Shown here: piece after piece, positions 12,200-28,997 of the stretch
How the letters are laid out: every line of letters starts with the position of its first letter
Position numbering within the stretch: the first letter of the stretch is position 1
Assembly: GCA_021845885.1 (NCBI GenBank)
Contig: JAJZVB010000002.1
Span: 1-53,128, forward strand
Origin: Pseudomonadota bacterium
GTDB taxonomy: Bacteria; Pseudomonadota; Gammaproteobacteria; Burkholderiales; JABEVD01
Direction: 5' to 3'
Length of the DNA: 53,128 bases
Program-made: the position numbers and the translations under genes
Notes under the pieces: model-generated
Told to the model about the DNA's origin: nothing
Seen by the model: only the letters and a program-made list of their open reading frames with translations
The model's database searches: none

Positions 12200-12223
12200 T
12201 TTTTCCATAACAAGAAACCATCC

Positions 12224-14227
12224 ATGTCCAAATCCGTTTACCTGCTTCTCGGCGTCCACGCCCACCAGCCCGTCGGGAATTTTTCCCATGTTATCGACGA
12301 TGCTCATTTGCGCTGCTACGGCCCTTTCCTCAGGACAATGCACGGCTATCCCGAGTTCAGGTTCTCCATCCATTTCAGCGGCTGGCTTTTCGATCAGCTG
12401 TTGAGCCGTTACCCCAAGGAAATGAAACTCTTGAAGGAAATGGTGGGGCGGGGCCAGGCCGAGATATTCGGGGCGGGCTACAGCGAGCCGGTGCTGGCCG
12501 TGATTCCCTACCGAGACCGGATTGCCCAGATCGAAACGCTTTCAAGAAGGCTGGAAAAGACCTTGGGAAAAAAGCCCGAAGGGGCCTGGCTGACCGAAAG
12601 GGTTTGGGAGGCGACGGTCGTCCCGGCGCTCGCTGATTCCGGCATCGCCTATACCACCGTCGACGATTACCATTTCCTTTGCAGCGGGAAAAAGATGTCG
12701 GAGCTCGACGGCTTCTTCACCACGGAGGAGGACGGAAGAAAGCTCGATCTTTTCCCGATTTCGGAGGCGCTGAGGTACAAGCTCCCCTTTTCTCCTGCAA
12801 ACGAAGTCGTCGCTTACCTGGAGGGTCTTGCAAGGGAAGAGGGGGATCCTGCAGCCATTTATTTCGACGACATCGAGAAATTCGGCATCTGGCCGGAAAC
12901 CTACCACTGGGTCTACGAGCAGGGCTGGCTCAGGGAGTTCCTGGAGGGCGTGCTCGCATCGAAGATCATCAAGACCATGCGCTATTCGGATTACCGGAAA
13001 ATGGCGAGAACGCGCGGCGTGATCTATCTGCCCACCACTTCCTACATCGAAATGAACGAATGGACGCTTCCCGTTCCCGCCGCCCATCATTATGCGGATC
13101 TGGTACAGGAATCGAAGCATTCCGGGACATTCGAGCAGAACAAGGCTTTCCTCAGGGGTGGGATATGGAAGAATTTCTTCAGCCGCTATCCCGAATCGAA
13201 CTGGATGCACAAGCGCATGCTTTCGCTTTCGACGAGGCTCGATGCACTGCCGAAAAGGAAGAGAACGGCGCAAATGATCGAGGCGCTTTTCGAGGCCCAG
13301 GCGAACGACGCCTACTGGCACGGCCTTTTCGGCGGCCTTTATCTTCCCCATTTGCGGCGGGCTGTCTATCGCGCGATCGTGAAGCTCGAGCAGTTGCTCG
13401 ACTCGGCTTCGAAAAGGGATGCAAAGCAGGTTCATGACCTCGATCTCGACGGCCATGACGAAGCCTTCATCCAGAACGGGCTGCTGCAGATCGCAGTGAG
13501 GCTCGACGGCAGCGCGTCCCTGTGCGAATGGGATGTCTATAAACTTTCCCACAATTTCGCTGACACGCTTTCCCCCCCTGAAGAGCACTACCACAGGAAA
13601 ATCCATTTTCAGGAGAGCGAGCCCCATTCAGGGGGGGTATACAATCCTCACGAGAAAATGGGATTCAAGGACAGGATCACGCCCGAAGACCTGAAAACGA
13701 ACGAGGGGCCGAAATCGCTCTTCATGGAAAGATGGATCACCCAGTCGGGAATCGCGAGACCGGCCTACGAATTGGTTCATGACGCCGATTCCCTCGGCAT
13801 CGCCTTCGGCGCCAGGCTCGGAGAGGGCAGGGTGGCCAAGCGCTTCCGCCTCGAAAAGAACAGGCTATTCGCCGAATATGCTTTCGAAGAAACGGGCGAG
13901 GGCACTTTCTGCATCGAGCTCAATCTCGCCATGCCGAGCTGCGACGGCCCTGCCGGCCGATTCAGGATAGGCGACGACATCATGGGGGGATTCGGCCAGG
14001 AGCTGACGGTGCAGAACCTGAAATCGCTGGTGCTTGAAGACGATGTGCTGGGCGGAAAGCTTTCCATTCATCTCGATCAGGGCATGGGATGCTACGCCAG
14101 GCCCCATTTCAGCGTATCTCAGTCCGAAGCGGGATTCGAGAAGATCATGCAGGCCGTGACGATTTCGCTTTCCTGCAGGCCAAGGGAATTGAATGCCCCC
14201 GTTTCCATCTGTTTCGAGGTGGAATGA
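12224..14227 (+). CDS. GH57 alpha-amylase / 4-alpha-glucanotransferase
   Basis: HAHQPVGNF, GAWLTERVWE, FDDIEKFGIWP, AQANDAYWHGLFGGLYLPHLR and C-terminal SVSQSEAGFEKIMQ, all typical of the GH57 4-alpha-glucanotransferase type. Confidence 0.9.
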   Translation: MSKSVYLLLGVHAHQPVGNFSHVIDDAHLRCYGPFLRTMHGYPEFRFSIHFSGWLFDQLLSRYPKEMKLLKEMVGRGQAEIFGAGYSEPVLAVIPYRDRIAQIETLSRRLEKTLGKKPEGAWLTERVWEATVVPALADSGIAYTTVDDYHFLCSGKKMSELDGFFTTEEDGRKLDLFPISEALRYKLPFSPANEVVAYLEGLAREEGDPAAIYFDDIEKFGIWPETYHWVYEQGWLREFLEGVLASKIIKTMRYSDYRKMARTRGVIYLPTTSYIEMNEWTLPVPAAHHYADLVQESKHSGTFEQNKAFLRGGIWKNFFSRYPESNWMHKRMLSLSTRLDALPKRKRTAQMIEALFEAQANDAYWHGLFGGLYLPHLRRAVYRAIVKLEQLLDSASKRDAKQVHDLDLDGHDEAFIQNGLLQIAVRLDGSASLCEWDVYKLSHNFADTLSPPEEHYHRKIHFQESEPHSGGVYNPHEKMGFKDRITPEDLKTNEGPKSLFMERWITQSGIARPAYELVHDADSLGIAFGARLGEGRVAKRFRLEKNRLFAEYAFEETGEGTFCIELNLAMPSCDGPAGRFRIGDDIMGGFGQELTVQNLKSLVLEDDVLGGKLSIHLDQGMGCYARPHFSVSQSEAGFEKIMQAVTISLSCRPRELNAPVSICFEVE

Positions 14228-15135
14228 TGCATCTCGTTGGCATCGACGTGGGCGGAACGAATTTCAGGGTCGGGGTTTTTTCGGGTCAAGCCCTGCTCTG
14301 GGAGAAGCGCTTCGAAGCGGATTTTTCCGCGCTTTGCAGGACAAGCCAGGACGCGCAGGCTTCGATCATGGAAACCATGGCTTCGGCGATTTCTGAGGCG
14401 ATTCGGGTATTTCCGGACATCGGCGCAATAGGGATCGGTTTCCCGGGATTCATCGATCCTGCGACCATGTGCATTGCGAGTTCCCCCAATCTGCCCGGGC
14501 TGTCGAATGTCGACATTGCAGGCCCGCTTTCAGTCCGCTTCCGTCTTCCGGTGATCGTCGAGAACGATGCGCTCGCCGCAGCCTATGGCGAACAGGTGCT
14601 CGGCGGGCATGAAAGCCTGATTTACATCGGCCTCGGCACGGGAGTCGGAGGGGGATTGATCCTGGATGGAAAGCCCTATCCGGGCGAGCACGGCGTGGCC
14701 ATGGAAATCGGGCACATCATCGTCGACCCGGGAGGAAGGCTCTGCGGCTGCGGCAATCGTGGCTGCCTGGAGCGATATGCCTCGGCCTCGGGCGTCTCAA
14801 TTTCCTATCAGGAACAGACGGGCAGGCAGCTTTCGGCGAAGGAAATCGCGGGCCTTGCCGAAGCCGGGGACATCCTTGCGGTTTCAGCCTTCGATCTTGC
14901 CGGAGACAGGCTGGGGCTTGCCCTTTCGCATATCCTGAAGGTCGCCGACATTGCCCATGTCGTGGTCGGAGGGGGATTGAGCGAAGCCTGGCATTGGCTT
15001 GAAAAACCGTTCAGGACAAGGCTGGAAGCCGATCTGATTCCCGTTTTAAGGGGGAAATGCGAGGTCGGCGTCTCGAAAGCCCAGGACAGGGCAGGCATGC
15101 TCGGGGCGGCAGAGCTCGCTTCGAATCATTTCTGA
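14224..15135 (+). CDS. ROK family sugar kinase (probable glucokinase)
   Basis: GIDVGGT, ENDA, LGTGVGGG, EIGH and the CGCGNRGCLE zinc motif. Start overlaps the GH57 stop. Confidence 0.9.
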   Translation: MMHLVGIDVGGTNFRVGVFSGQALLWEKRFEADFSALCRTSQDAQASIMETMASAISEAIRVFPDIGAIGIGFPGFIDPATMCIASSPNLPGLSNVDIAGPLSVRFRLPVIVENDALAAAYGEQVLGGHESLIYIGLGTGVGGGLILDGKPYPGEHGVAMEIGHIIVDPGGRLCGCGNRGCLERYASASGVSISYQEQTGRQLSAKEIAGLAEAGDILAVSAFDLAGDRLGLALSHILKVADIAHVVVGGGLSEAWHWLEKPFRTRLEADLIPVLRGKCEVGVSKAQDRAGMLGAAELASNHF

Positions 15136-15566
15136 ATGATGGGAATGGAGCGGATTTCGGCCTGTACCTTGGGCGCGGCGACGTCGGCCAGGGTATAGCG
15201 GTCCAGGACATTGATGAAGGCGCTCCTCGCCTCGAAAAGCACTCCCTTCAGGGAACAGGTGCTCGAGATCACGCAGTGGTCCGTTTGAGGATTGAAGCAT
15301 TCCAGAAGATCGAAATCGGGCTCGGTATGCCGCACCACTTCGCCCACGGTGATTTCCCGGGCCGGGCGCGCCAGCCTGATCCCGCCGTGTTTGCCGCGCG
15401 AGGTCACGATGAAGCCGTTGATGCCCAGGTTATGCACGACCTTCACCAGGTGATTCCTGGATATTTTATAGAAATCAGCGAGTTCAGTGATCGTCACGGT
15501 CTCTTCCTTGTGGCTGAGATAAAGCAGGACACGCAACGAATAATCCGAATAGAGCGTCAGGCGCAC
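15126..15566 (-). CDS. nsrR: Rrf2 family NO-sensing repressor NsrR
   Basis: MRLTLYSDYSLRVLLYL, ISRNHLVKVV, RGKHGG and three Cys (LECF...DHCVISSTCSLK). GTG start; divergent from a globin gene. Confidence 0.85.
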   Translation of the reverse strand: MRLTLYSDYSLRVLLYLSHKEETVTITELADFYKISRNHLVKVVHNLGINGFIVTSRGKHGGIRLARPAREITVGEVVRHTEPDFDLLECFNPQTDHCVISSTCSLKGVLFEARSAFINVLDRYTLADVAAPKVQAEIRSIPIIQK

Positions 15567-15584
15567 GGTTTCTTCATTTATAGG

Positions 15585-15631
15585 TTGACAAACGGAACAG
15601 ACCTAAATAACATGCATTCAGAATGAATGTT
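15585..15631 (+). promoter_or_regulatory. Sigma-70 promoter overlapped by an NsrR box
   Basis: TTGACA (15585-15590), 17-bp spacer, TAACAT (15608-15613). The 11-1-11 inverted repeat AACATGCATTC-A-GAATGAATGTT (15609-15631, one mismatch) fits the NsrR consensus architecture. Confidence 0.8.
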
Positions 15632-15713
15632 TAGGATAGTCTCCGTATCGATCTTAATCAAGCATTCGGCATATCGCAAGAGAATATTGTCAATATTACT
15701 GAAAGGACGAGCT

Positions 15714-16082
15714 ATGAGCGGCACGCTTTATGAAAAAATCGGCGGGGAAGCGGCAGTCAATGCGGCAGTGGACATTTTTTACAGGAAGGTGCTGAGCGAC
15801 GATCGCATCAACCGGTTCTTCGAAGGGGTGGACATGGACAGGCAGGCGGCCAAGCAGAAGGCCTTCCTCACCATGGCTTTCGGTGGCCCCAACAACTACA
15901 CGGGGGAAGACATGAGGCGCGGGCATGCGCATCTCGTCGCAAAAGGGCTCAACGATGCCCATTTCGATGCCGTCATGGAAAATCTGGGCGCAACGCTGAC
16001 CGAACTCAACGTGCCAGCCGAACTCATCGCCCAGGCCGCTGCGATCGCCGAGAGCACCAGAAACGACGTGCTCGGCAAATAA
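15714..16082 (+). CDS. Group I truncated haemoglobin (trHbN/GlbN-like)
   Basis: MSGTLYEKIGGEAAVNAAVDIFYRKVLSD...FF...KQKAFLTMAFGGPNNYTG...HAHL...HFDAV. GAAAGGA RBS. Confidence 0.93.
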   Translation: MSGTLYEKIGGEAAVNAAVDIFYRKVLSDDRINRFFEGVDMDRQAAKQKAFLTMAFGGPNNYTGEDMRRGHAHLVAKGLNDAHFDAVMENLGATLTELNVPAELIAQAAAIAESTRNDVLGK

Positions 16083-16097
16083 AGGCTGCGGCGCGCC

Positions 16098-17069
16098 ATG
16101 GCGATCATCACTTTTGAAGGACAGGCCTACGAATGCAAGGAAAACGAGACCGTTCTCGATTGTCTGAATGCTCATGGTGTGCCGGTCCCCTCTTCATGCA
16201 AGGCGGGGGTTTGTCAGACCTGCCTGATGCGCGCAATGAAAGGCGAGGTGCCAGAAGAATCGCAGAAGGGGCTCAAATCCACGCTCGTCGAGCAGAATTA
16301 TTTCCTTGCCTGCTCATGCCAACCGGTTGAAGATATCGAGGTGAGCCTGCCCGAGACCGAGGTGGGAAAAATCCCTGCCACGGTGATCGGGATCGAGCCG
16401 CTCAACAGCGATATCGTCTGCGTGAGGCTCTATCCCGGAAGGGATTTCGAATACAGGGCGGGGCAGTACATCAATTTCTTCAAGGATGAGTCCGTTTCGA
16501 GAAGCTATTCGCTCGCCAGCGTGGCGGGACTCGACGACTGCATCAAGCTTCATGTGCGCAAGATCCCGCAAGGGCGGGTCAGCACGTGGATACACGAATC
16601 CCTTTTCCCTGGGGATACGGTGGAGATTTCCGAAGCAGCGGGGGATTGCTTCTATGTGCCCGGAAATCCGGAGCAGGGTCTGCTCCTGGTTGGCACGGGT
16701 TCGGGGCTCGCCCCGCTTTACGGCATCGTCAGGGATGCCCTCATGGCCGGGCACGCCGGGCCGATCAGGCTCTATCACGGCAGCCTGAATGTCGAAGGGC
16801 TTTACCTGATTTCGGAATTGAGGCAGCTTGCCCGGGAATACGACAACTTCAGCTATATTCCCTGCGTTTCTGGCGGGGAAGCGCCCGATGGGTTTGCTGC
16901 GGGAATCGTGCTCGATGTCGCATTGAAGGAAACGCCGAAACTTTCAGGATGGCGCGTCTATCTTTGCGGCAACCCGGATATGGTGAATGCCGCAAGGAAG
17001 AAGACCTTCCTTGCGGGTGCATCGATGAAGGATATTTACGCCGATCCTTTCGTTCCTTCGCGGCCTTAG
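16098..17069 (+). CDS. [2Fe-2S] ferredoxin - FAD/NAD(P)H oxidoreductase
   Basis: CKAGVCQTC...LAC plant-type Fe-S motif, RSYSLAS FAD motif, GTGSGLAP NAD motif and YLCGNPDMV. Confidence 0.92.
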   Translation: MAIITFEGQAYECKENETVLDCLNAHGVPVPSSCKAGVCQTCLMRAMKGEVPEESQKGLKSTLVEQNYFLACSCQPVEDIEVSLPETEVGKIPATVIGIEPLNSDIVCVRLYPGRDFEYRAGQYINFFKDESVSRSYSLASVAGLDDCIKLHVRKIPQGRVSTWIHESLFPGDTVEISEAAGDCFYVPGNPEQGLLLVGTGSGLAPLYGIVRDALMAGHAGPIRLYHGSLNVEGLYLISELRQLAREYDNFSYIPCVSGGEAPDGFAAGIVLDVALKETPKLSGWRVYLCGNPDMVNAARKKTFLAGASMKDIYADPFVPSRP

Positions 17070-17524
17070 GAAAGGAATCTCATCAGAAGGCGCCTGCTGT
17101 GCCTGTCGAGGCTGGAGACGCGCCTGATCAGGAAATTCACGCCGCTTTCGCCCGAGATGATCACCATCGATGGACCGATGCGGCGTATGTCATCCTCGCT
17201 TTTCAGCCTGAAAGCAGTGCTTCCGCGGTCCGTTTCGACGTGCCAGAGATTCGGCACGGATGCGCCATCGATGGCCTCTATCCTCGTAATTTCGGGAAGG
17301 AATTCGCGCTGATGCAATGACTCCTCGATGAGCTGGCGCTGCCTTTCCGGGAGTTTGCCTATTTCCGCAATCCAGGCGAGTTCCTTCCCTGCGGGGCTCA
17401 ACAGGGAGATCCCGCCTTCGGGGGAAGTGAGGGGGAAAGCCCTGACAGGCAGTGCGGCATGGCGACTTCCGTCCTTGGCGACATAAATCAGCTTTCCGAA
17501 AGCGTCCTTTTCAAGTTCGATCAT
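17066..17524 (-). CDS. DUF1854-like protein (family associated with cyanophycin loci)
   Basis: PVRAFPLTSP, FLPEITRI, WHVETDRG and LDRHSRRLL match my recollection of DUF1854. Start overlaps the ABC transporter stop. Confidence 0.75.
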   Translation of the reverse strand: MIELEKDAFGKLIYVAKDGSRHAALPVRAFPLTSPEGGISLLSPAGKELAWIAEIGKLPERQRQLIEESLHQREFLPEITRIEAIDGASVPNLWHVETDRGSTAFRLKSEDDIRRIGPSMVIISGESGVNFLIRRVSSLDRHSRRLLMRFLS

Positions 17525-19653
17525 GCCGCTTCCCCGTCCATCTGCCTTGCCTGGGCCTGGTAGAGCCTGTGATAAGCGCCTTCTTTTGCGATCAGGTCGT
17601 CGTGGCTGCCGATTTCGACAATTTCCCCCCTATCCATCACCACCAGCCGATCGGCGCGGCGCAAGGTCGAAAGTCTGTGCGCAATGGCGATGGTGGTGCG
17701 GCCCCTGATGAGATTCTCGAGCGCTTCCTGGATTTCCAGCTCGGTTTCGGTGTCGACCGATGAAGTCGCTTCGTCCAGGATCAGGATGCGCGGATCGATG
17801 AGCAGCGCGCGGGCGATGGAGATGCGCTGGCGTTCTCCGCCGGAGAGGGATTGGCCGCGCTCCCCGACCAGGGAATCGTATCCCAAGGGCAGGCGAAGGA
17901 TGAATTCATGGGCATGAGCGGCCCGGGCAGCGGCCACGATTTCCGCCTTCGAGGCGTCGGGCTTTCCATAGGCGATGTTTTCGGCGATCGTACCGAAGAA
18001 CAGGAAGGGCTCCTGGAGCACGAGCCCGATGTTGCGGCGGTATTGCGCAAGGGAAAGGGAGCGGATATCCAGTCCGTCGACCAGGATTTCGCCCTCAAGA
18101 GGGTCGTAGAACCGGCAGATCAGGTTGACGAGCGTGCTCTTTCCCGACCCGCTGTGCCCGACGAGCCCGATCATCTCTCCCGGGGAAATGGAAAGATTCA
18201 CGCCCCTCAATATGGGCCTCTGGCCATAGCGGAATGCGGCCTTCCTGATCTCTATGGCCCCTTCGATTCTGCCGATCGGCAAGGGATTCGACGGTTCCGG
18301 CACGCTGGAAGCATGGTCGAGTATGTCGAAGATGCGTTTCGCCCCTGCGGCCGCCTTCTGCGTGACGGATACGATGCGGCTCATCGAATCGAGGCGTGTG
18401 TAGAAACGGGTGATGTAGGCGAGGAAGGCGGTCAGCATGCCTACGGTGATCGTTTTCCTGGACACTTCCCATATGCCGAAGGCCCAGACCACGAGCAGGC
18501 CGATTTCGGTGAGTAGCGTCACGCTCGGCCCGAATAGCGACCATACCGTGTTCACCTTGTCGTTCACCTCGAGATTGTGGGCATTGGCATGCTTGAATCG
18601 GGCCACTTCCCTCGCTTCCTGGGCGAAAGCCTTGACCACCCTGATTCCCGGAATGGTGTCGGCAAGCACGTTGGTGATTTCGGACCAGACCCTGTCGGAC
18701 TGCTCGAAGCCGTGTTTGAGCCTGTCGCGGACGTAATGGATCATCCAGGCGATGAAGGGAAGCGGCAGGAGCGTCACCACGGCGAGCCATGGATTGATGG
18801 AAAGCAGGATGGCTGCAGTCATGGCGATCATCAAAAGATCGGTTGCGAAATCGAGGAGATGGAGCGACAGGAAGACGTTGATCCGGTCCGTCTCGGAGCC
18901 TATCCTCGCGATCAGGTCGCCTGTTCTTTTTCCGCCGAAATATTCCAGGGAAAGGCTCTGCAGGTGTCTGAAGGTTTCCACCCTCAAATCGGCGCCGATG
19001 CGCTCCGACACCCTGGCGAGCAAATAGGTCCTGGCCCAGCCCAGGATCCATGCGGCCAGGGCGGCCATGAAGAGGCCTGACAAATACAAGGCGACCCTAC
19101 TCTTGTCTATCGGAATGCCGTTCTGGAAGGGAATCAGCACCTTGTCCATCAGCGGCATGGTGAGATAGGGCGGAACCATGGCTGCGGCCGTGGAGGCGAG
19201 CGTGAGCAGGAAGCCGGTGAAAAGTTCCCTACGATACGGCTTTGCGAACCGCCTCAGGCGAAACAGCGTCCAGCTCGGAGGCTGGGCTTCCTCTTCTGAC
19301 CCCTCAATGTCGATACGCGCTTCTTCTTCAATGCCGCGGAAGCAATCGAGAAGGCGTTTCGCTGCGGCGTCGCGGTCCAGGGTGTAGCGCCATGCGGCGA
19401 GCAGTCTGTCGCTGCGCAATTCGATGCGCCCGACCCCGCCATGCTCTTCTTTGACGAGTTCCAGACCTGTCCTTCCCCAGTCCTGCCATTGCCCGGAAGG
19501 GTCGAGGCCGATCAGGCGCCTGTCGGTAAGGAAAAGGAAGCTCGAGGAAAATCTCAGCGCATCGTCCAGATTCGATTCGAGCGAGGCCATGAGCTTTTCT
19601 CCCGGTTCGAGCGGGGCCTCGATCAGTGCCTCTTTTGAAGGAATGTCCTGCAT
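17521..19653 (-). CDS. ABC exporter (fused TMD-NBD) with an N-terminal cytoplasmic extension; cyanophycin-locus-associated type
   Basis: Multiple TM helices, Walker A GHSGSGKS, signature LSGGERQR, Walker B ILILDEATS and AHRLST. Start is ATG 19653 or ATG 19698. Confidence 0.92.
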   Translation of the reverse strand: MQDIPSKEALIEAPLEPGEKLMASLESNLDDALRFSSSFLFLTDRRLIGLDPSGQWQDWGRTGLELVKEEHGGVGRIELRSDRLLAAWRYTLDRDAAAKRLLDCFRGIEEEARIDIEGSEEEAQPPSWTLFRLRRFAKPYRRELFTGFLLTLASTAAAMVPPYLTMPLMDKVLIPFQNGIPIDKSRVALYLSGLFMAALAAWILGWARTYLLARVSERIGADLRVETFRHLQSLSLEYFGGKRTGDLIARIGSETDRINVFLSLHLLDFATDLLMIAMTAAILLSINPWLAVVTLLPLPFIAWMIHYVRDRLKHGFEQSDRVWSEITNVLADTIPGIRVVKAFAQEAREVARFKHANAHNLEVNDKVNTVWSLFGPSVTLLTEIGLLVVWAFGIWEVSRKTITVGMLTAFLAYITRFYTRLDSMSRIVSVTQKAAAGAKRIFDILDHASSVPEPSNPLPIGRIEGAIEIRKAAFRYGQRPILRGVNLSISPGEMIGLVGHSGSGKSTLVNLICRFYDPLEGEILVDGLDIRSLSLAQYRRNIGLVLQEPFLFFGTIAENIAYGKPDASKAEIVAAARAAHAHEFILRLPLGYDSLVGERGQSLSGGERQRISIARALLIDPRILILDEATSSVDTETELEIQEALENLIRGRTTIAIAHRLSTLRRADRLVVMDRGEIVEIGSHDDLIAKEGAYHRLYQAQARQMDGEAA

Positions 19654-19689
19654 GCGCGCAGTATACCCCAAGCCGCGCAATAATCCCCC

Positions 19690-19851
19690 TGTCTCCATTT
19701 TGAGACAAATAATTATATTGAAAATCAGAATGTTATTTTTATTGTTCGGGGATCTGTCTCCCGCTGGCGACGTTCCGGACTGGAATTATTCCAGAAAGTC
19801 ATTTTTATTCTTTTTAAATCATTGAGTTGATTATGTGGCATGATATTTGCT
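19690..19851 (+). promoter_or_regulatory. Sigma-54 promoter with putative enhancer and IHF site upstream of cphA
   Basis: TGGCATGATATTTGCT at 19836-19851 (GG-N10-GC). Palindrome TGTCTC-N6-GAGACA at 19690-19707. IHF-like AATCATTGAGTTG at 19817-19829. Confidence 0.75.
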
Positions 19852-19882
19852 TTTATATGTGTTTCCAACACCGATCGGTCAT

Positions 19883-22015
19883 ATGCGCGACATCGAAATC
19901 CTCAGGATTCATCATCTCAAGGGGCCCAATATCTGGACCTACCGTCCCGTGCTTGAGGCCTGGGTCGATATCGGCGAACTGGAGGACTGCCCTTCCAATA
20001 CCATAGCAGGCTTTTATGAAAGGCTGGTCTCCTGGCTGCCCACGCTCGAGGAACATCGCTGCAGCTATGGGGTCAGGGGAGGATTTCTTCGCCGGGTCAG
20101 GGAAGGCACCTGGCCCGCCCATATCCTCGAGCATGTCACGCTGGAATTGCAAAGCCTCGCGGGTTTCCCGGGCGGCTTCGGCAAGGCGAGGGAAACCTCG
20201 AAGCGGGGCGTCTACAAGGTGGTGGTGCGCGCCCATCAGGAAGCGCTCACGCGGGCCTGCCTCCTTGCTGCAAGGGACCTCGTCATGGCTGCCATGGAGG
20301 ACAGGCCATTTGAGGTGGCTGCCGTGGTCAAAACATTGCGGCGCGTGGCCGATTCGTATTGCCTCGGGCCCAGCACCGCCTGCATCGTGGATGCGGCAGA
20401 CGACCGGGACATCCCGGCGATCCGCCTGAACGAAGGCAATCTGGTTCAGCTCGGCTATGGCGCCAGGAGCCGCAGGATCTGGACGGCGGAAAGCGATGCC
20501 ACCTCGGCCATCGCCGAAGGCATTTCAAGGGACAAGGATCTCACCAAGAGCTTGCTCGAATCATGCGGCGTTCCCGTTCCGGAAGGGAGACTGGCTGCTT
20601 CCTCGGAAGAGGCGTGGGAAGTGGCCGAAGCCATCGGCCTGCCCGTCGTCGTCAAGCCCACGGACGGCAATCACGGACGAGGCGTCTTCACCAACCTGCA
20701 GACAAGGGAAGAAATTGAAACCGCGTTTGAAGTGGCCGTCGGGGAAGGCAGCGGGGTCATCGTGGAGCGCTCCATTCCGGGCATCGAGCACCGCCTCCTC
20801 GTCGTGGGTGGAAAGCTGGTGGCTGCGGCAAAGGGGGAGGAAGTATTCGTGACCGGGGACGGGGTTTCCTCCGTTTCCGAACTGATCGAGCTCCAGGTCA
20901 ACAGCAGTTCCTTGCGCGGCGGCTCGGAAGACCATCCGCTCAATCCCGTCAGGCTGGACACGGCGGCCAGGATGGAGCTGAAGCGGCAGGGCTACGGCGC
21001 GGAATCGGTCATTCCTGAAGGCGTGCAGGTGCTCGTGCAGCGCAACGGAAGCGTCTGCTTCGACGTGACCGAAAGCGTTCATCCCGAAAATGCGGCCATT
21101 GCTGAACTCGCAGCCAGAGTCGTCGGGCTCGACATCGCGGGAATCGATCTGCTTGCGGAAGACATTTCGAGGCCCCTCAGGGAGCAGCATGGCGCGATCG
21201 TCGAAGTCAATGCGGGGCCCGGGCTCCTCATGCATCTGAAGCCCGCGATAGGCGCGCCCAGGCCGGTCGGGAAAGCCATCGTCGGCAGCCTTTTCGACAA
21301 GGGCGAATCGGGAAGGATTCCGATCGTCGGGATTACGGGAACCGGGGACAACAGTTCGACCGCCATGCAGATCGCCCGGCTTTTCCATCTCGAAGGGAAA
21401 AATGCAGGGCTCGCCTGCAGCGGAGGGCTTTATCTCGGAAAAAGGCGGATATCGAATCAGGCCGGATGGGCGGATTCCCGGAAGATCCTGATGAACAGGA
21501 ATGTCGAGGCCGCCGTATTCGAGAACGGCCCGCTTGTCCTGCTCGAAGAAGGACTCCCCTACGACCGCTGCCAGGTCGGCATCGTCACGGGCATCGCGCC
21601 GGGATCGAAAGTCGAGGCATTCGACATCCTGGACGAGGAGAAAATGGCCGGCGTGCTGCGCACCCAGGTCGACGTGGTGCTTGCGGAAGGGGCGGCCGTG
21701 CTCAATGCTGACGACGAGCGGGTCGTTGAAATGGCGAAATATTGTGACGGGGAGGTGATTTATTATGCCTCGGGACCGGGAAAGGTCAGTGCCCACATCG
21801 AGGCGGGGCACCGCGCCGTTTTTCTGCGCGGACGCTACCTGTTCCTCGCGCATGGGGGGGGCGAAACCAGGCTGATGCAGGGCGGCATCGGGCTGCTTCC
21901 TGCGGCTGCCGCAGCCGTCGCCCTGGGTTTCGATATTGAACTCATCAAAAATGGACTGGGAACATTCGACTGTGCCGATGCGGCCGAAATGAAAAGGAAT
22001 GCGGAATGCAATTAA
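19883..22015 (+). CDS. cphA: Cyanophycin synthetase paralogue CphA' (intact N-domain hydrolase motif; degenerate, truncated Mur-ligase domain)
   Basis: GPNIWTYRP, HRCSYG...HILEHVTLELQ, LGPST, LVQLGYG, VVKPTDGNHGRGV and EVNAGPGL. P-loop replaced by GTGDNSST; no C-terminal lid. Confidence 0.9.
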   Translation: MRDIEILRIHHLKGPNIWTYRPVLEAWVDIGELEDCPSNTIAGFYERLVSWLPTLEEHRCSYGVRGGFLRRVREGTWPAHILEHVTLELQSLAGFPGGFGKARETSKRGVYKVVVRAHQEALTRACLLAARDLVMAAMEDRPFEVAAVVKTLRRVADSYCLGPSTACIVDAADDRDIPAIRLNEGNLVQLGYGARSRRIWTAESDATSAIAEGISRDKDLTKSLLESCGVPVPEGRLAASSEEAWEVAEAIGLPVVVKPTDGNHGRGVFTNLQTREEIETAFEVAVGEGSGVIVERSIPGIEHRLLVVGGKLVAAAKGEEVFVTGDGVSSVSELIELQVNSSSLRGGSEDHPLNPVRLDTAARMELKRQGYGAESVIPEGVQVLVQRNGSVCFDVTESVHPENAAIAELAARVVGLDIAGIDLLAEDISRPLREQHGAIVEVNAGPGLLMHLKPAIGAPRPVGKAIVGSLFDKGESGRIPIVGITGTGDNSSTAMQIARLFHLEGKNAGLACSGGLYLGKRRISNQAGWADSRKILMNRNVEAAVFENGPLVLLEEGLPYDRCQVGIVTGIAPGSKVEAFDILDEEKMAGVLRTQVDVVLAEGAAVLNADDERVVEMAKYCDGEVIYYASGPGKVSAHIEAGHRAVFLRGRYLFLAHGGGETRLMQGGIGLLPAAAAAVALGFDIELIKNGLGTFDCADAAEMKRNAECN

Positions 22016-24564
22016 AGCGTATCAGGGCCCTGAGGGGCCCCAATCTTTGGACGAGACATACCGCGCTGGAAGCCTTGGTTTCTTGTCATGAAAAGCCCGA
22101 TGCGGGTTTCAATGTCAGGTTCGGCGCCGTTTTCCCCGAAATGGGGCAACCCGGGAGCTTCGCCCATGCATTGACGCATGCAGCGCTCGAGCTCCAGGTT
22201 CTGGCGGGATGTCAGGTGGCCTTCAGCTGCACGATGGCCATGCCCGAACCGGGTACTCATCTTTCCGTGGTTGAATATGGCGAGGAGGAAGTCGGCAGGC
22301 TGGCTTTCGAGCTCGCCGAGGCATTGTGCAGGTCGGCCCTGAATAATGAGGCTTTCGATCTTCAGGAGGCCCTGGCGAGGATCAGGGATCTCGATGAGGA
22401 TTCGAGGATCGGCCCCAGCACGGGTTCCATAGTCCAGGCGGCGATCGACCGGGAAATCCCCTGGCGCAGGCTGACGCGAGGCTCCCTCGTCCAGTTCGGA
22501 TGGGGAAGCCGCCAGAGGCGCATCCAGGCGGCCGAAACAGACCGCTGCGGGGCGATTGCGGAATCCATCGCCCAGGACAAGGATCTCGCCAAGATGCTGC
22601 TCGATGCGGCAGGCGTTCCGGTGCCTCAGGGCCGTCCCGTCGAGGACGCCGAGGATGCCTGGCTTGCGGCATGCGAAATAGGCGCCCCGGTCGTGGTCAA
22701 GCCCAGAAACGGCAACCAGGGCAAGGGCATCACCGCCAACATTTCGCAAAGGGATGAAGTGTTTTCCGCCTATGATGCCGCTTGCGGGTATGACGACGAA
22801 GTGCTGGTGGAGCGCTATCTTCCGGGATGCGATTATCGCCTTCTGGTGGTGGGAAATGGTATGGTCGCCGCGGCAAGGCGCGATCCACCCCATGTGATCG
22901 GCGACGGAAAAAGAGCCATCAGGGAACTCGTGGAGGCGGTCAACAATGATCCGATGCGAGGGGAAGGGCATGCCACTTCGCTCACCAAAATAAGGCTCGA
23001 CGAAATTGCGCTCGCCACGCTCGCCCGCCAGGGGCTGGAAGCCGATTCGATTCCGGAAGAAGGCAGGAAGGTCGTGCTCAGGAACAATGCCAACCTTTCA
23101 ACGGGCGGCACGGCGACCGACGTCACGCTTGACGTGCATCCCGAAGTCGCAGCCCGCGCGGTCGAGGCGGCGAAGGCGGTCGGGCTCAAGGTCTGCGGCG
23201 TGGACATCGTCTGCGGGAATGTGGGACTGCCGCTCGAAGAGCAGGGCGGCGGCGTCGTCGAAGTGAATGCGGCGCCCGGGTTGCGCATGCATCTCGATCC
23301 TTCCTTCGGGGAAAAGAGGCCGGTGGGAGAAGCCATCATGTCCGAATTGTTCCCTGAGGGAGACGGGCGCATCCCGCTCGTCGCCGTGACGGGAACCAAC
23401 GGTAAAACCACTACGGTCAGGCTCTGCGCCCATCTTCTCGGCAAAAGCGGATTGCGCGTCGGCATGACCAATTCCGACGGCGTCTATATCGGGGGTCAAC
23501 GCATCGACACCGGGGATTGCAGCGGGCCGAAAAGCGCGCGCAACGTGCTGCTGCATCCCGACGTCGATGCCGCCGTTCTGGAAACCGCGAGGGGGGGGCT
23601 GTTGCGGGAAGGGCTCGCCTTCGACCGCTGCGACGTGGCCATCGTCACCAATATCGGCATGGGAGACCATCTGGGTCTGGCCCATATCCATACCGTCGAG
23701 GATCTCGCGGTGGTCAAGCGGGTTATCGTTGAAAATGTTTCGCCCGAAGGCTATGCCGTGCTCAATGCCGACGATCCCCTGGTCGCAGCCATGGCGGAAT
23801 CCTGTCCGGGCTCGGTCCTGTTCTTCTCCAGGAATCCTCATCATCCCCTCATTGCGGCAAGCCGCGTGAGGAGGGAGCGCGTGGTGTTCGCCTCATCCGA
23901 CGGCATTCATGCCGTACAGGGTAAATTCGAGCATCACTTTGCCTGGTCCGAAATCCCGCTCACGAGGGGAGGGGCCGTCCCGTTCCAGATCGAAAACGCG
24001 ATGGCGGCGATTGCGGCGGGATGGGCATTGGGTCTTTCCTGGGAAATCATACAAAACGGACTTTCCTCCTTCAGGAGCGATGCCGCGACAGCTCCCGGGC
24101 GGTTCAATGTGTTCGACTTCCGGGATGCCACCGTGATTGCCGATTACGGACACAATCCCGATGCGATTCTCGCGCTCGTCAAGGCCGTAGAAGCCTTCCC
24201 CGCGAGCCGCAGGACGGTCGTCATCAGCGGGGCGGGGGACAGGCGCGACGAGGATATCGTGAGCCAGACCAGGATGCTCGGTGCGGCCTTCGACGAAGTC
24301 GTGCTCTACCAGGACCAGTGCCAGCGCGGAAGGGCGGACGGGGAAGTGCTGAAGCTCTTGCGGGAAGGATTGGAAAATGCGCCGAGAACGAGGAAGATAG
24401 CCGAGATCAGGGGCGAATTCGCCGCCATCGATCGCGCGCTCGACCGATTGAATCCCGGGGAGCTTTGCCTGATCCTCGTCGATCAGGTGGACGAGGCGCT
24501 TTCCCATATCGGCCTGCGCGTCGAGGAAGCCCTGCGTTTTCCATTGCAGGCGATGGCGTCATGA
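22006..24564 (+). CDS. cphA: Cyanophycin synthetase CphA
   Basis: LRGPNLW, IGPSTGSIV, VVKPRNGNQGKG, ANLSTGG, EVNAAPGLRMH, VTGTNGKTTT, ETARGG, DHLG, PGRFN and DYGHNP. Confidence 0.96.
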   Translation: MQLKRIRALRGPNLWTRHTALEALVSCHEKPDAGFNVRFGAVFPEMGQPGSFAHALTHAALELQVLAGCQVAFSCTMAMPEPGTHLSVVEYGEEEVGRLAFELAEALCRSALNNEAFDLQEALARIRDLDEDSRIGPSTGSIVQAAIDREIPWRRLTRGSLVQFGWGSRQRRIQAAETDRCGAIAESIAQDKDLAKMLLDAAGVPVPQGRPVEDAEDAWLAACEIGAPVVVKPRNGNQGKGITANISQRDEVFSAYDAACGYDDEVLVERYLPGCDYRLLVVGNGMVAAARRDPPHVIGDGKRAIRELVEAVNNDPMRGEGHATSLTKIRLDEIALATLARQGLEADSIPEEGRKVVLRNNANLSTGGTATDVTLDVHPEVAARAVEAAKAVGLKVCGVDIVCGNVGLPLEEQGGGVVEVNAAPGLRMHLDPSFGEKRPVGEAIMSELFPEGDGRIPLVAVTGTNGKTTTVRLCAHLLGKSGLRVGMTNSDGVYIGGQRIDTGDCSGPKSARNVLLHPDVDAAVLETARGGLLREGLAFDRCDVAIVTNIGMGDHLGLAHIHTVEDLAVVKRVIVENVSPEGYAVLNADDPLVAAMAESCPGSVLFFSRNPHHPLIAASRVRRERVVFASSDGIHAVQGKFEHHFAWSEIPLTRGGAVPFQIENAMAAIAAGWALGLSWEIIQNGLSSFRSDAATAPGRFNVFDFRDATVIADYGHNPDAILALVKAVEAFPASRRTVVISGAGDRRDEDIVSQTRMLGAAFDEVVLYQDQCQRGRADGEVLKLLREGLENAPRTRKIAEIRGEFAAIDRALDRLNPGELCLILVDQVDEALSHIGLRVEEALRFPLQAMAS

Positions 24565-24741
24565 GCGTTTCGCAAGATTTTCCCGCCTGCGCTTTTCGGC
24601 CAGATCGAGGACGGCTTTCCTTTCCCCGGCATCCAATTCGTTCCATGCAACGATCTCGGAAAGCGATCTGAAGCAGCCCAGGCAGATGTCGTTCTCGTCC
24701 AGGCAGCAATTCCTGACGCAGGGGGAGGCGACGTCAGCCAT
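24559..24741 (-). CDS. DUF1289 (YdhL-like) small Cys-rich putative Fe-S protein
   Basis: SPCVRNCCLD...CLGCFRSLSEI.AW. Start overlaps the nadB end. Confidence 0.85.
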   Translation of the reverse strand: MADVASPCVRNCCLDENDICLGCFRSLSEIVAWNELDAGERKAVLDLAEKRRRENLAKRS

Positions 24742-26305
24742 GTTTCAGTATGGTGTCATAGGCATCGCTCAACTTTTCAGGATAGTCGCGGCTGTAATGC
24801 AGGCCGCGGCTTTCAGGCCGCAGCATCGCGCTCTTCACGATGAGCTGCGCCGTGAGCACGAGATTCCTGAGCTCCAGGAGATCCTGGCTGATCCTGAAGT
24901 TGGAATAATATTCCTCGATTTCTTCGGTGAGCAGCTTGATCCTGTTTTGCGCGCGCTCAAGGCGCTTCCTGGTGCGCACGATGCCGACATAATTCCACAT
25001 GAAGCGGCGCAATTCCGACCAGTTGTGATGGATCACAATTTCCTCGTCCGCGTCGGTCACGCGGCTTTCGTCCCAGAGGGGAAGCTCGATGCTTTCTCCT
25101 TTTGGTTTTTCCAGGATGTCTCTCGCGGCAGCCTTCGAGAAGACCAGGCATTCCAGGAGCGAGTTGCTGGCGAGACGGTTTGCGCCGTGCAGCCCCGTGC
25201 AGGCCGTCTCGCCTATGGCATAGAGATCCTGGACGTCGGTCCTGCCGGAGAGGTCGGTCATGACTCCGCCGCAAAGATAATGGGCTGCCGGAACGACGGG
25301 AATCGGCTCCTTGGAGATATTGATCCCGAGTTCGAGGCATCTCGAATAAATGGTGGGGAAATGGGTCCTGAGGAATTCCGGGCTTTTCTGCGTCATGTCG
25401 AGATAGACGCATTCGATGCCGCGCTTCTTCATTTCGAAGTCGATGGCGCGGGCGACGATGTCTCGCGGGGCGAGTTCGGCTCGCTCGTCGTGCAGGGGCA
25501 TGAAACGCGTTCCGTCCGGAAGCCTCAGGATCCCGCCTTCCCCCCTCAGCGCCTCCGAAATGAGAAAGGATTTTGCTTTGGGATGATAGAGGCAGGTCGG
25601 ATGGAACTGGATGAATTCCATGTCGGCCACCCTGCAGCCTGCCCGCCATGCGATCGCGACCCCGTCTCCCGTGGAAGTGTCCGGATTCGTGGTGTAAAGA
25701 TAAACTTTTCCCGCCCCGCCGGTTGCGAGCACGGTGTTGTCGGCCGCTATGCTTTTCACCTTGTTTTCCATGCAATCGAGCGCATAGAGACCCAGGCACC
25801 GGTTGTCCTTGAGGCCCACCTTGGATGCAGTGATGAGGTCGATCGCCATGTGGTGCTCGAGCACGATGATGTTCGGGTTTTTCTCCACCTTTTCGATGAG
25901 CGTTTGCTGTACGGCCGCCCCCGTTGCGTCCGCGGCATGGATGATGCGCCTGAAACTGTGCCCGCCTTCCCGGGTGAGATGGAAATGACCGGCTTCTTCG
26001 GGGTCGGCGGTGAAAGGGACGTGCAGGTCGATCAGCCATTGTATGGCCTCCCGCCCTTCCTCCACGACATGCCTCACCACTGCCTCGTTGCAAAGCCCTG
26101 CGCCCGCCACCAGCGTATCGCGGACATGCGATTCGATCGAATCGGCTTCGGAAAGGACCGCTGCGATGCCGCCCTGGGCCATGTAGCTTGCGCCCTCGGC
26201 CAGAGATTTTTTCGTGATCAGGCCGACTTTCTGCCTTTCGCCGAGATGCAGGGCCAGGGAAAGCCCGGCAAGGCCGCTGCCGACGATGAGCGTGTCAAAG
26301 CGCAT
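24734..26305 (-). CDS. nadB: L-aspartate oxidase
   Basis: GSGLAG, AQGGIAAV, REGGHS, QFHPT, SEALRGEG, ELAPRDIVARAI, HGANRLASNSLLE and ESRGLH. Confidence 0.98.
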   Translation of the reverse strand: MRFDTLIVGSGLAGLSLALHLGERQKVGLITKKSLAEGASYMAQGGIAAVLSEADSIESHVRDTLVAGAGLCNEAVVRHVVEEGREAIQWLIDLHVPFTADPEEAGHFHLTREGGHSFRRIIHAADATGAAVQQTLIEKVEKNPNIIVLEHHMAIDLITASKVGLKDNRCLGLYALDCMENKVKSIAADNTVLATGGAGKVYLYTTNPDTSTGDGVAIAWRAGCRVADMEFIQFHPTCLYHPKAKSFLISEALRGEGGILRLPDGTRFMPLHDERAELAPRDIVARAIDFEMKKRGIECVYLDMTQKSPEFLRTHFPTIYSRCLELGINISKEPIPVVPAAHYLCGGVMTDLSGRTDVQDLYAIGETACTGLHGANRLASNSLLECLVFSKAAARDILEKPKGESIELPLWDESRVTDADEEIVIHHNWSELRRFMWNYVGIVRTRKRLERAQNRIKLLTEEIEEYYSNFRISQDLLELRNLVLTAQLIVKSAMLRPESRGLHYSRDYPEKLSDAYDTILKHG

Positions 26306-26382
26306 TCAAATCCTTTGTTATGTTTCTGTCACAAATATATCATGATTGCCGCCGGATTTTTCGAAATAGGCAAGCCTTCCGT

Positions 26383-26410
26383 GAACTAATAACCATGACG
26401 GATTGTCTCT
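26383..26410 (+). promoter_or_regulatory. Putative sigma-E autoregulatory promoter
   Basis: GAACTA-N16-GTCTCT upstream of rpoE, resembling the ECF sigma-E GAACTT...TCT consensus. Confidence 0.55.
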
Positions 26411-26519
26411 TGCTTGACGATGCTTGTTTCATCAAATGCGCCCTGAAAGGTTATACTGCAACAGTTCCGCTATAAAATCGTAGCCGAATTGAAACTTATC
26501 GCACTATTCAGGGAATCGC

Positions 26520-27119
26520 ATGGGGGACAGGAGCATAGACCAGCAGTTGGTGGAGCAGGCGCAGCGCGGAGACAAGCGCGCGTTCGGCTTGCTGGTCTCG
26601 AAGTATCAGCGCAAGCTGGCCAGGCTGCTGTCCCGTTTCATCCGGGACCCGGCTGAAGTGGAGGATGTGACGCAGGAGGCCTTCATCAAGGCTTACCGCG
26701 CGCTTCCCTCCTTCAGGGGGGACAGCGCTTTTTATACCTGGCTTTATCGGATAGGCATCAATACGGCCAAGAATTATCTGGTTGCCCAGGGGCGCCGCGC
26801 GCCGACGACGACGAGTCTGGACAACGAGGAGGCGGAAAGCTCGGAAGAAGGAGAAGGATTGTGGGAAGTCACTACCCCGGAAAACGAACTGATGAGCAAG
26901 CAGGTCGCCAAGACGGTGAACGACACTTTGCAGACGCTTCCTGAAGAGCTCAGGACCGCGATCACGCTGCGCGAAATAGAAGGTTTGAGTTACGAGGAAA
27001 TTGCGAACATCATGGATTGCCCGATCGGGACAGTACGCTCCAGGATTTTTCGCGCCAGGGAAGTGATAGCAGAGAAGTTGAGGCCGATGTTGGAACCCAG
27101 GAAAAACAAGAGGTGGTGA
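26520..27119 (+). CDS. rpoE: ECF sigma factor RpoE
   Basis: DVTQEAFIKAYRAL, AFYTWLYRIGINTAKNYL and GLSYEEIA...CPIGTVRSRIFRARE. Divergent from nadB. Confidence 0.98.
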   Translation: MGDRSIDQQLVEQAQRGDKRAFGLLVSKYQRKLARLLSRFIRDPAEVEDVTQEAFIKAYRALPSFRGDSAFYTWLYRIGINTAKNYLVAQGRRAPTTTSLDNEEAESSEEGEGLWEVTTPENELMSKQVAKTVNDTLQTLPEELRTAITLREIEGLSYEEIANIMDCPIGTVRSRIFRAREVIAEKLRPMLEPRKNKRW

Positions 27120-27120
27120 A

Positions 27121-27594
27121 ATGAGAGAGCAAATTTCGTTGCTGATGGATGGCGAGCTGGACGGCGATGCTTCCGCGCAGCTCGTATCCGGGATGAAGGA
27201 ACAGGATGACTGGCATTTGTATCACCTGATCGGCGATGCCATGCGGGATCCGGAAGGATTCAGGGCCGATCTCGATCTGGATTGCAGCCGGGCCATCAGC
27301 CTTGAGCCCACGGTGCTGGCGCCTCAAAAATCGAAGCTGCACCATGCGAAACTGTATGCCCTGTCCGCAGCGGCATCTTTTGCGGCTGTTCTTGCGGTGG
27401 GATGGGTCGTCTTGCAGAGCCCGCAGGATTCGCCGGTTCCGAAGCAGGTCGCGCAGGTCGTGCGCCTCAATGTCATCAAGTCCAAGCTGGACGACTATCT
27501 GGCTGCGCATCAGGAATTCTCTCCCGAATCGGGGGGGATTATGACTTCCAACATCAGGACGGTTTCAGACACCTATCAGGAAAACGGCAGATGA
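27121..27594 (+). CDS. rseA: Anti-sigma-E factor RseA/MucA
   Basis: EQISLLMDGEL, WHLYHLIGDAMR, one TM segment and LDDYLAAHQEF. Confidence 0.92.
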   Translation: MREQISLLMDGELDGDASAQLVSGMKEQDDWHLYHLIGDAMRDPEGFRADLDLDCSRAISLEPTVLAPQKSKLHHAKLYALSAAASFAAVLAVGWVVLQSPQDSPVPKQVAQVVRLNVIKSKLDDYLAAHQEFSPESGGIMTSNIRTVSDTYQENGR

Positions 27595-28559
27595 GACTTG
27601 TCGTTTTCCTGCTGTTGGTTGCAACCCGGGCCGCATTCGCGGCGACGCCCCTCCAGCCTCAGGATTCCATCGATTTACTGAAAAAGATTTCCGCCGCAGC
27701 CTACCAGGTGACCTATCAGGGGACCTTCATTTTCCAGCGCGACGGGCGGATCGAAAGCACGCGAATTTACCATCTGGTCGACCAGAATGGCGAGCATGAA
27801 AAGCTTGTCAGGCTGGACGGGCCTGCAAGGGAAATCATCTGCGACGACGGGCAGATGACATTCTACTATCCCGACCAGAAATCCATGACGATGGAGCGCC
27901 ATGCCGTGGCGAGAAGGGGATTCCCGGCCCTGCTGCCGGATCAGCTTCAGACCCTCTCGGACAATTACCTGCTCGAGGACGACGGTCGCGAACGCCTGGC
28001 TGGCTACGACAGCAGGATCCTGCTGCTCACTCCCAAGGACGGTTTCCGCTACGGGCACAAGCTCTGGATCGATTCCGCCACAAACCTGCTTCTCAAGGCG
28101 GCGATGATCAGCGGCGAGAACGATATCATCGAGCAGTTCGCTTTCACTTACGTGAAGATAGGCGGCAATATCGACAGAAACCTGCTCAAGCCTTCCCTGC
28201 CTGTCAAGGCGCCCCGTTTGCAAAGCGACCCCCGCCAGGACAGTTTTCAGAGCGGATGGGGCGTGGAGAATCTGCCTCCCGGATTCAGGAAAATCGCCGA
28301 AATGAAGCGCATGTTCAGGGGCAAGAACTATCCTGTCACGCATCTTGTCTATTCGGACGGCATCGTGGCCGTCTCGGTCTTCATCGAACCTTTGACGCCC
28401 GGGACGAGGCCGATGCAGGGCGTGGCCAGCCGGGGTGCGGTGAATCTTTATGTCCATCCCGCGGACCAGTACCAGATCACCGTGGTCGGCGAAACGCCGG
28501 AGATCACGGTCAGGCAGATCGGCGATTCTGTCGTTCACAATGGAAAGAGCCATGATTGA
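27591..28559 (+). CDS. rseB: RseB/MucB periplasmic regulator
   Basis: Signal peptide, YQGTFIFQ, LDGPAREII and HLVYSDGIVAVSVFIE. Confidence 0.93.
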   Translation: MRLVVFLLLVATRAAFAATPLQPQDSIDLLKKISAAAYQVTYQGTFIFQRDGRIESTRIYHLVDQNGEHEKLVRLDGPAREIICDDGQMTFYYPDQKSMTMERHAVARRGFPALLPDQLQTLSDNYLLEDDGRERLAGYDSRILLLTPKDGFRYGHKLWIDSATNLLLKAAMISGENDIIEQFAFTYVKIGGNIDRNLLKPSLPVKAPRLQSDPRQDSFQSGWGVENLPPGFRKIAEMKRMFRGKNYPVTHLVYSDGIVAVSVFIEPLTPGTRPMQGVASRGAVNLYVHPADQYQITVVGETPEITVRQIGDSVVHNGKSHD

Positions 28560-28971: not shown

Positions 28972-28997
28972 TCGACAAGCAAAGAGGAAACGATAAG

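Follow-up and report, generated by a model that had tools for sequence, protein, structure and literature searches.

Four genes encoding a DUF1854 protein, an ATP-binding cassette (ABC) transporter, and two cyanophycin synthetases, CphA' and CphA, are cofit in random barcode transposon-site sequencing (RB-TnSeq) experiments on Acidovorax 3H11 and Cupriavidus basilensis 4G11 (Price et al. 2016, bioRxiv 10.1101/072470). Mutants of the four genes show motility and pleiotropic stress phenotypes, and the same work records that the cyanophycinase gene, cphB, is missing from many beta-proteobacteria, notes occasional fusions of DUF1854 with the ABC protein, and proposes that the polymer is exported to the cell wall. 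The corresponding families, NF052233 (ABC) and NF052234 (DUF1854), bear the name 'cyanophycin metabolism-associated' in NCBIfam. Cyanophycinase has been reported in only 3% of beta-proteobacterial cphA1 genomes, a rate described as unanticipated, and unknown cyanophycinase isozymes were suggested for the other 97% (Sharon and Schmeing 2023, PMC10206079). The stretch of DNA considered here (the window) comprises 53,128 nucleotides of contig JAJZVB010000002.1, from a Burkholderiales genome (GCA_021845885.1) that is available as a 2.07 Mb draft, 96.3% complete and in 169 contigs. It contains all four genes and is an ordinary member of this already catalogued module. Comparison of 52 such synthetase pairs, including that of the window, shows in sequence that the active-site losses of CphA' and CphA are complementary, with the three sites of a classical CphA1 divided between two genes.

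The original prediction for this locus, made from the DNA sequence, recognized two paired synthetases and pointed to a link of the ABC/DUF1854 pair with cphA in family annotations. The pairing is borne out and the NCBIfam names agree with that link, but the complementary losses escaped notice. The accompanying statement that no demonstrated function was known overlooked the cofitness data of Price et al., the only work found to join 'cyanophycin' and 'DUF1854' in a full-text search that left most subscription journals outside.

Active sites of CphA' and CphA

The site comparison rests on an alignment of 52 CphA' and 52 CphA sequences (the window's included), with nine cphB-linked enzymes as controls, to SuCphA1 (PDB 7lg5), and M-domain residue numbers follow that alignment. 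Functional roles of the residues discussed are those described for CphA1 enzymes (PMC9427784, PMC9262961). The N-domain site is a slow endo-cyanophycinase that gives mainly tetramers, dipeptides not being its main product, and its motif has been defined as Cx19HxxEH (PMC9262961). All four residues of this primer-making zinc motif are present in CphA' of the window (C60, H80, E83, and H84). Across the set, CphA' keeps H57, C59, F67, R70, H79, E82, H83, and E87 in 51/52 sequences, the exception being a truncated open reading frame (ORF) call. The ATP and donor half of the G site (K220, K261, H267, R309, D431, E450, and N452) is likewise retained, in 52/52. Lost from CphA' is the Asp pocket: R323 is replaced by Gly and R458 by Leu, each in 51 of 52 sequences, and S396 and G398 are deleted in all 52. 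The window protein has G318 and L449 at the two Arg positions and a large loop shortened by five residues. Its M-domain P-loop is decayed and its M lid absent; 42 of the 52 CphA' have no residue aligned in the lid Asp column. Nine CphA' (from loci L027, L031, L034, L040, L045, L048, L055, L066, and L067) retain an M domain of full length, GKT and DHLG motifs included, and their Asp pocket is still lost; these appear to be intermediate states in M-domain decay.

CphA shows the complementary pattern. R323, N394, S396, R458, K499, E558, R561, D585, and H586 are present in 52/52 sequences, accompanied by loss of the N-domain metal motif, in which the C59-R70 loop is gone and C59 occurs in none of the 52. 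In the window protein, the Asp pocket (R292, N363, S365, and R427), the M-site residues K467 and D554-H555, and the lid are intact, and Gln238 occupies the G-site position of His267. Both synthetases score above the NF010623 cut-off of 877 (968.6 for CphA', 1179.3 for CphA). The classical definition of CphA1 calls for a full-length chain that unites the G and M sites. CphA exceeds the TIGR02068 cut-off (950.5; cut-off 850), which CphA' misses (675), and its Asp pocket and M site are retained, but Gln stands in for His267. The same Gln is found in three of four single planctomycete enzymes and in two of the nine cphB-linked enzymes; its occurrence in these other CphA types suggests, therefore, that Gln at this position may be tolerated.

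ABC transporter and DUF1854 protein

The ABC protein of the window is of type IV, with a transmembrane domain (TMD) fused to a nucleotide-binding domain (NBD) in which the Walker A, signature, catalytic Glu, and His-loop elements are intact; K505, E628, and H659 are invariant across 59 aligned sequences. In its AlphaFold2 (AF2) model (predicted local distance difference test score, pLDDT, 84.4), an N-terminal domain precedes a helical TMD, and the NBD is canonical; the nearest solved bacterial structures are TM288, Sav1866, and TmrA. The fused fold had been taken in the original prediction to suggest export or membrane tethering of synthesis, but such a fold is compatible with either direction of transport, since importers also occur among type IV ABC transporters. 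From its topology and a Pfam match in one relative, the N-terminal domain would be pleckstrin homology (PH)-like: bPH_3 matches one distant ABC relative (E 2.2e-5) and has no match in the N-terminal domain of the window protein itself. A zinc ribbon (CxxC..CxxC) follows this domain in 49 of the 59 aligned ABC proteins and is missing from that of the window. ABC proteins of the cphA-linked clade carry near-invariant acidic and basic TMD residues, mostly different in five sister-clade sequences, and conserved charges of both signs would suit a zwitterionic substrate.

The AF2 model of the DUF1854 protein (pLDDT 95.8) is a two-fold internal repeat of beta-rich, helix-capped halves, which align to each other by HHalign (probability 71%, E 3.7e-5). 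A wide fold search with this model (VIA-align) placed the DUF1285 structure 2ra9 first, as a weak match (Z 5.5, root-mean-square deviation 2.9, 66 residues aligned), followed by many PH domains at Z ~3; no enzyme fold was singled out. The DUF1854 profile matched no solved structure by sequence, and the ABC N-terminal domain does not align with DUF1854 (HHalign probability 2.5%). DUF1854 has 1209 clusters at E <= 0.001 among 1.84 billion representatives. In three of the best 150 clusters (P0073, P0138, and P0143) it is fused to the C terminus of a full-length ABC protein. Two in-frame overlaps that resemble such fusions, in genomes G252 and G258, proved to be separate ORFs. The fusions, and the occurrence of a sister ABC/DUF1854 subfamily in genomes without cphA, point to DUF1854 as a likely accessory subunit of the ABC transporter.

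Distribution of the module and of degradation genes

DUF1854, cphA, and cphB were searched for in each of 301 genomes of the same order; kin are not independent, so the resulting counts are descriptive only. DUF1854 was found in 89 genomes and cphA in 100, and every one of the 89 DUF1854-positive genomes has cphA. The 11 genomes with cphA and no DUF1854 all contain a strong canonical cphB. Matches resembling cphB occur in 27/301 genomes, 12 of them strong (E < 1e-68), and a single DUF1854-positive genome (G140) has a strong one, together with a second, cphB-adjacent cphA locus. At that second locus (L050, C1:5338624-5345843), cphB is accompanied by two cphA genes in convergent orientation, each encoding Gln at the His267 position. 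Weaker cphB-like matches are present in 12 more DUF1854-positive genomes, where the open frames span 301-887 amino acids and might, at a guess, encode secreted CphE, and in 3 of the 201 genomes without cphA. The check put forward in the original prediction, co-occurrence of the four genes and absence of cphB across genomes, is largely upheld for DUF1854 and the synthetase genes in this sample. Beside the cphB-linked cphA genes of six loci (L059, L060, and L062-L065), a Mur-ligase-like ORF of 570-720 amino acids, weakly similar to CphA, lies on the 3' side.

DUF1854 lies within 10.5 kb of cphA in 78 of the 89 genomes, a linkage that is therefore not due to chance. The distance is 12-18 kb in two further genomes, the genes are on different contigs in five, and one genome is not listed. 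The ABC gene was counted only in 52 loci, picked from the 88 other DUF1854-positive genomes mostly for apparent linkage, and it adjoins DUF1854 in all 52. The module is present in 49 of the 143 genera of the order, and a phylum-wide sample of 301 genomes gave DUF1854 in 17, of which 16 belong to this order.

The draft genome of the window gave no match, within the limits of a 169-contig assembly that cannot prove gene absence, to TIGR02069 or PF03575 (cyanophycinase), PF01112 (IaaA), TIGR01975 (IadA), or PF04952 or PF24827 (AstE/CphZ-type domains), and it contains no cphA besides the locus pair. Each degradation-gene profile search gave matches in at least one control genome. The classical CphA1-CphB arrangement, with a linked or at least present cphB and an isoaspartyl dipeptidase, was accordingly not found there, and the lack of both genes first noted for the window extends to the whole draft.

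Planctomycete loci and sister transporters

Outside the order, a scan of genome contigs with one ABC-DUF1854 fusion returned at least 60 loci, with a DUF1854 match in 12 among the loci listed. Two of those listed, both from Planctomycetota (L079:6029-12810 and L083:6106-12751), contain a single CphA in which the motifs of the three sites occur together, along with the Gln variant; its gene is transcribed divergently from ABC/DUF1854. No other CphA N domain was found in either genome, and the ABC matches of the two loci each extend over more than one frame. These loci represent a possible unsplit form of the module. In two further planctomycete genomes with an ABC protein above the family cut-off, a full-length cphA is present and unlinked. 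In a quick tree of 53 proteins, a branch with 100 support in the Shimodaira-Hasegawa-like approximate likelihood ratio test (SH-aLRT) separates 11 cphB-adjacent enzymes from a group made up of CphA, CphA', and the four planctomycete enzymes; the tree does not settle the branching order within that group. A single three-site CphA, later split, may have been ancestral.

The other nine DUF1854 loci among those listed contain a sister type of ABC protein (37-45% identity). The 11 sister proteins scanned score 498-652 bits, below the NF052233 cut-off of 880. At four loci, from Latescibacterota (L089, L090), Clostridia (L091), and Selenomonadales (L092), sister-type ABC genes stand as a tandem pair together with DUF1854, cphA being absent from the genome, and the pair probably encodes a heterodimeric transporter; a MurD-like ligase gene lies directly upstream in L089 and L090. 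In two Gemmatimonadota genomes, the sole cphA is cphB-linked and located elsewhere in the genome. Since sister ABC/DUF1854 loci occur without cphA, DUF1854 would partner this ABC lineage generally, with one clade tied to cphA.

Proposed function and alternative explanations

The evidence slightly favors a split synthetase that feeds an inner-membrane ABC/DUF1854 exporter, with CphA building an Asp/Arg-type polymer, CphA' cutting or priming it, and the product serving an envelope role rather than storage. The two chains may pair through their conserved G domains, in the manner of an engineered N-G+M+/N+G-M- SuCphA1 heterodimer that is active, somewhat less so without primer (PMC9262961). The endopeptidase site of CphA' would supply primers and may set chain length, and the ABC protein, with DUF1854 as its accessory, would export the product, as proposed in 2016. 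No membrane-fusion or TolC gene is present in the cluster of the window, which makes the periplasm the likely destination. Export, as put forward in the original prediction, is a reasonable idea that fits the published cofitness, the co-occurrence, and the near-exclusion of cphB; it is not new, and the product may be other than cyanophycin.

Several observations weigh against this proposal. Gln replaces His267 in 51 of 52 CphA sequences, four of four solved CphA1 enzymes have His, and the H267A substitution kills G-site activity of SuCphA1 (PMC9262961). The polymer-binding Glu215 is replaced in both CphA and CphA', where a Glu sits one position earlier. DUF1854 and cphA lie 0.35-2.3 Mb apart in 3 of the 89 genomes, and outside the order no full-length cphA was found in 6 of 10 genomes searched, all six with sister-type ABC proteins and two of them single-chromosome genomes (Latescibacterota). 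No cyanophycin was formed by the CphA/CphA' pair of C. necator in a study to which Price et al. (bioRxiv 10.1101/072470) refer. Finally, no published test of export, product identity, or description of the split sites was found in a search that left most subscription journals and bioRxiv supplements outside.

A tentative and on balance rather unlikely alternative is a different or end-modified polymer. CphA' would be an active ligase that attaches the C terminus of the chain to an amine other than that of Asp (from a lipid head group, a polyamine, or the cell wall), and the capped product would then be flipped or exported by the ABC protein. The polymer that the C. necator enzymes reportedly made scattered light and was something other than cyanophycin (work cited by Price et al., bioRxiv 10.1101/072470). 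Retention of the ATP and donor residues in every CphA', beside an Asp pocket replaced by fixed Gly and Leu, is also consistent with such an activity. Near-invariant columns number 109 of 316 in the CphA' G domain versus 124 of 319 in that of CphA, and 18 of 234 in the decayed CphA' M core; conservation of the G domain in CphA' thus comes close to that in CphA and leaves room for a second ligase activity. Much of this conservation could, however, be explained by the G core doubling as the dimer interface (PMC9427784), and in the planctomycete loci a lone CphA with an ordinary Asp pocket appears to suffice, CphA' being absent. It is improbable, in turn, that the polymer serves as an intracellular store or pH buffer, with the CphA' endopeptidase replacing CphB and the ABC protein only removing or moving oligomers or tethering synthesis to the membrane. 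The N-domain site is indeed a demonstrated endo-cyanophycinase with tetramers as its main product (PMC9262961), the isozymes suggested for the 97% of genomes without a known cyanophycinase (PMC10206079) would leave a place for such an enzyme, a pH-buffer role has been proposed for acid-mine Gallionellaceae (PMC5178258), and the DNA of the window occurs in mine-drainage metagenomes. But the site is slow and dipeptides are not its main product (PMC9262961), the draft genome has no isoaspartyl dipeptidase or CphZ match to complete breakdown, and an envelope role accounts better for the phenotypes in motility and under various stresses (Price et al., bioRxiv 10.1101/072470). The presence of the module in 49 genera also makes a special acid adaptation unlikely.

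Lastly, it is highly improbable that ABC/DUF1854 has a general substrate of its own and is merely co-regulated or loosely linked with the synthetases. Such independence would accord with the sister subfamily, in which two tandem ABC genes are frequent, DUF1854 occurs in genomes without cphA (including the two single-chromosome Latescibacterota), and the neighboring genes have no pathway in common. Against it, in the clade above the NF052233 cut-off, all 89 DUF1854 genomes have cphA, a full-length cphA is present in each of the four planctomycete genomes tested, and the genes show cofitness. Frequent occurrence of ABC/DUF1854 without cphA, named in the original prediction as evidence against its reading, therefore holds for the sister subfamily (the 6 of 10 genomes above) and not for this clade.

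The split synthetase coupled to an exporter can be extended to a more specific lineage, in which a three-site CphA, of the kind retained in Planctomycetota, was split into a polymerase (CphA) and a subunit that cuts and caps (CphA'), the repurposed ATP-grasp site of CphA' joins the chain to a non-aspartate amine anchor, and a PH-domain ABC protein with a DUF1854 adaptor then moves the resulting secreted envelope polyamide to the periplasm. This full combination is unlikely as it stands; if true, it would place an unrecognized cell-envelope polymer in ~30% of the sampled genomes of the order. Export itself is an idea already in print, and the puzzle behind it is the 3% cyanophycinase rate (PMC10206079), which the residue pattern of the split sites and the single-gene planctomycete loci make directly testable. 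Should export be real, it would mean a new envelope polymer in a large bacterial group and a possible route to secreted cyanophycin.

Locus organization and control region

The features of the locus are collected in Table 1. The four genes, the 10-bp overlap of cphA' and cphA, and the overlap of the ABC stop with the DUF1854 start (4 bp) were read correctly in the original prediction, as was the divergent gap of 229 bp, provided that the ABC gene starts at 19653; a start at 19698 would reduce the gap to 184 bp. In the same-genus locus L019, the ATG equivalent to 19698 does not share the reading frame of the ABC gene, and 19653 is therefore the likely start codon. The ABC protein scores 1270.9 bits against NF052233, and the DUF1854 protein passes both NF052234 (186.8 bits, cut-off 150) and PF08909 (142.1 versus 26.8).

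Table 1 Features of the cyanophycin synthetase/transporter locus, in window coordinates
Feature	Coordinates	Strand	Remarks
DUF1854 gene	17066-17524	(-)	ORF call, 152 amino acids
ABC gene	17521-19653	(-)	ORF call, 710 amino acids; longest ORF, from 19698, 725 amino acids
ABC N-terminal cytoplasmic domain, residues ~7-105	19339-19635	(-)	Seven strands and a capping helix in the model
Divergent control region	19654-19882		229 bp between ABC and cphA' genes
TATACT	19660-19665	(-)	6 nt 5' of ABC start codon; candidate -10 box
Palindrome TGTCTC-N6-GAGACA, operator-like site 1	19690-19707		Perfect
Palindrome copy 2, operator-like	19755-19772		One mismatch; 65 bp from copy 1
cphA'	19883-22015	(+)	ORF call, 710 amino acids counted from ATG
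Cx19HxxEH zinc endo-cyanophycinase (primer-making) motif of CphA'	20060-20134	(+)	Alignment to SuCphA1 7lg5
cphA	22006-24564	(+)	ORF call, 852 amino acids

The control region contains two copies of a palindrome, the first of which is the sole perfect one in the draft genome, where eight further sites have one mismatch. The pair, as TGTC(T/G)C-N6-G(A/C)GACA, is kept in all three other same-genus loci (L019-L021) with spacings of 65, 65, and 67 bp. It is specific to the genus, the best sites in other genera carrying at least two mismatches. Such a conserved pair is likely the operator of a dimeric regulator. The TATACT hexamer recurs 7 nt 5' of the ATG in L019 and is a possible -10 box of a leaderless ABC transcript. 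A consensus promoter scan did not list the hexamer at its position in the window, and counts from the consensus promoter/terminator scan were at chance level.

The genes on either side are of other kinds. An NsrR-like Rrf2 regulator gene, divergent from truncated globin and 2Fe-2S/FAD reductase genes (15126-17069), likely forms a nitric-oxide detoxification unit with them; the stop of the reductase gene overlaps that of DUF1854. Further to the left (10526-15135) are two GH57 glucan enzymes and a ROK kinase, and to the right (24734-30380) are nadB and then, as read by eye, rpoE, rse, and degP genes, both flanks being housekeeping in character.

Comparison with known systems

The catalogued module (NF052233/NF052234; Price 2016) has the same four genes above cut-offs, no cphB, and the same export proposal. 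Nothing essential differs in the copy of the window, whose ABC protein lacks the zinc ribbon and whose control region has the genus-specific palindrome pair; the division of active sites is absent from the passage on the module in Price 2016. The ABC protein has its fused TMD-NBD and intact ATPase motifs in common with type IV exporters (TM287/288, Sav1866, and TmrAB) and differs from them in its additional N-terminal, PH-like domain and its DUF1854 partner.

Assignment of CphA' to CphA2 was considered and rejected, given the N-site motif in 51/52 CphA' and the deletion of the S396 and G398 large-loop columns in 52/52. CphA2 (PDB 7TA5, 8FXH; PMC10273328) is a beta-Asp-Arg dipeptide polymerase with a dead, truncated M domain, as in CphA', but it has no N-site motif and needs R389, N393, and S395 of the large loop (PMC10273328), whereas CphA' keeps the N site and has lost part of the loop. 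Three-site CphA1 enzymes (Synechocystis UTEX2470 and Trichodesmium; 7LG5, 7WAC; PMC9262961, PMC9427784) share their N-G-M order with the window proteins. The system of the window departs from them in the replacement of His267 by Gln in CphA, the shifted Glu215, the lack of cphB, and the linked ABC transporter. Taken together, its CphA' and CphA hold every motif of the three CphA1 sites, divided between two genes.

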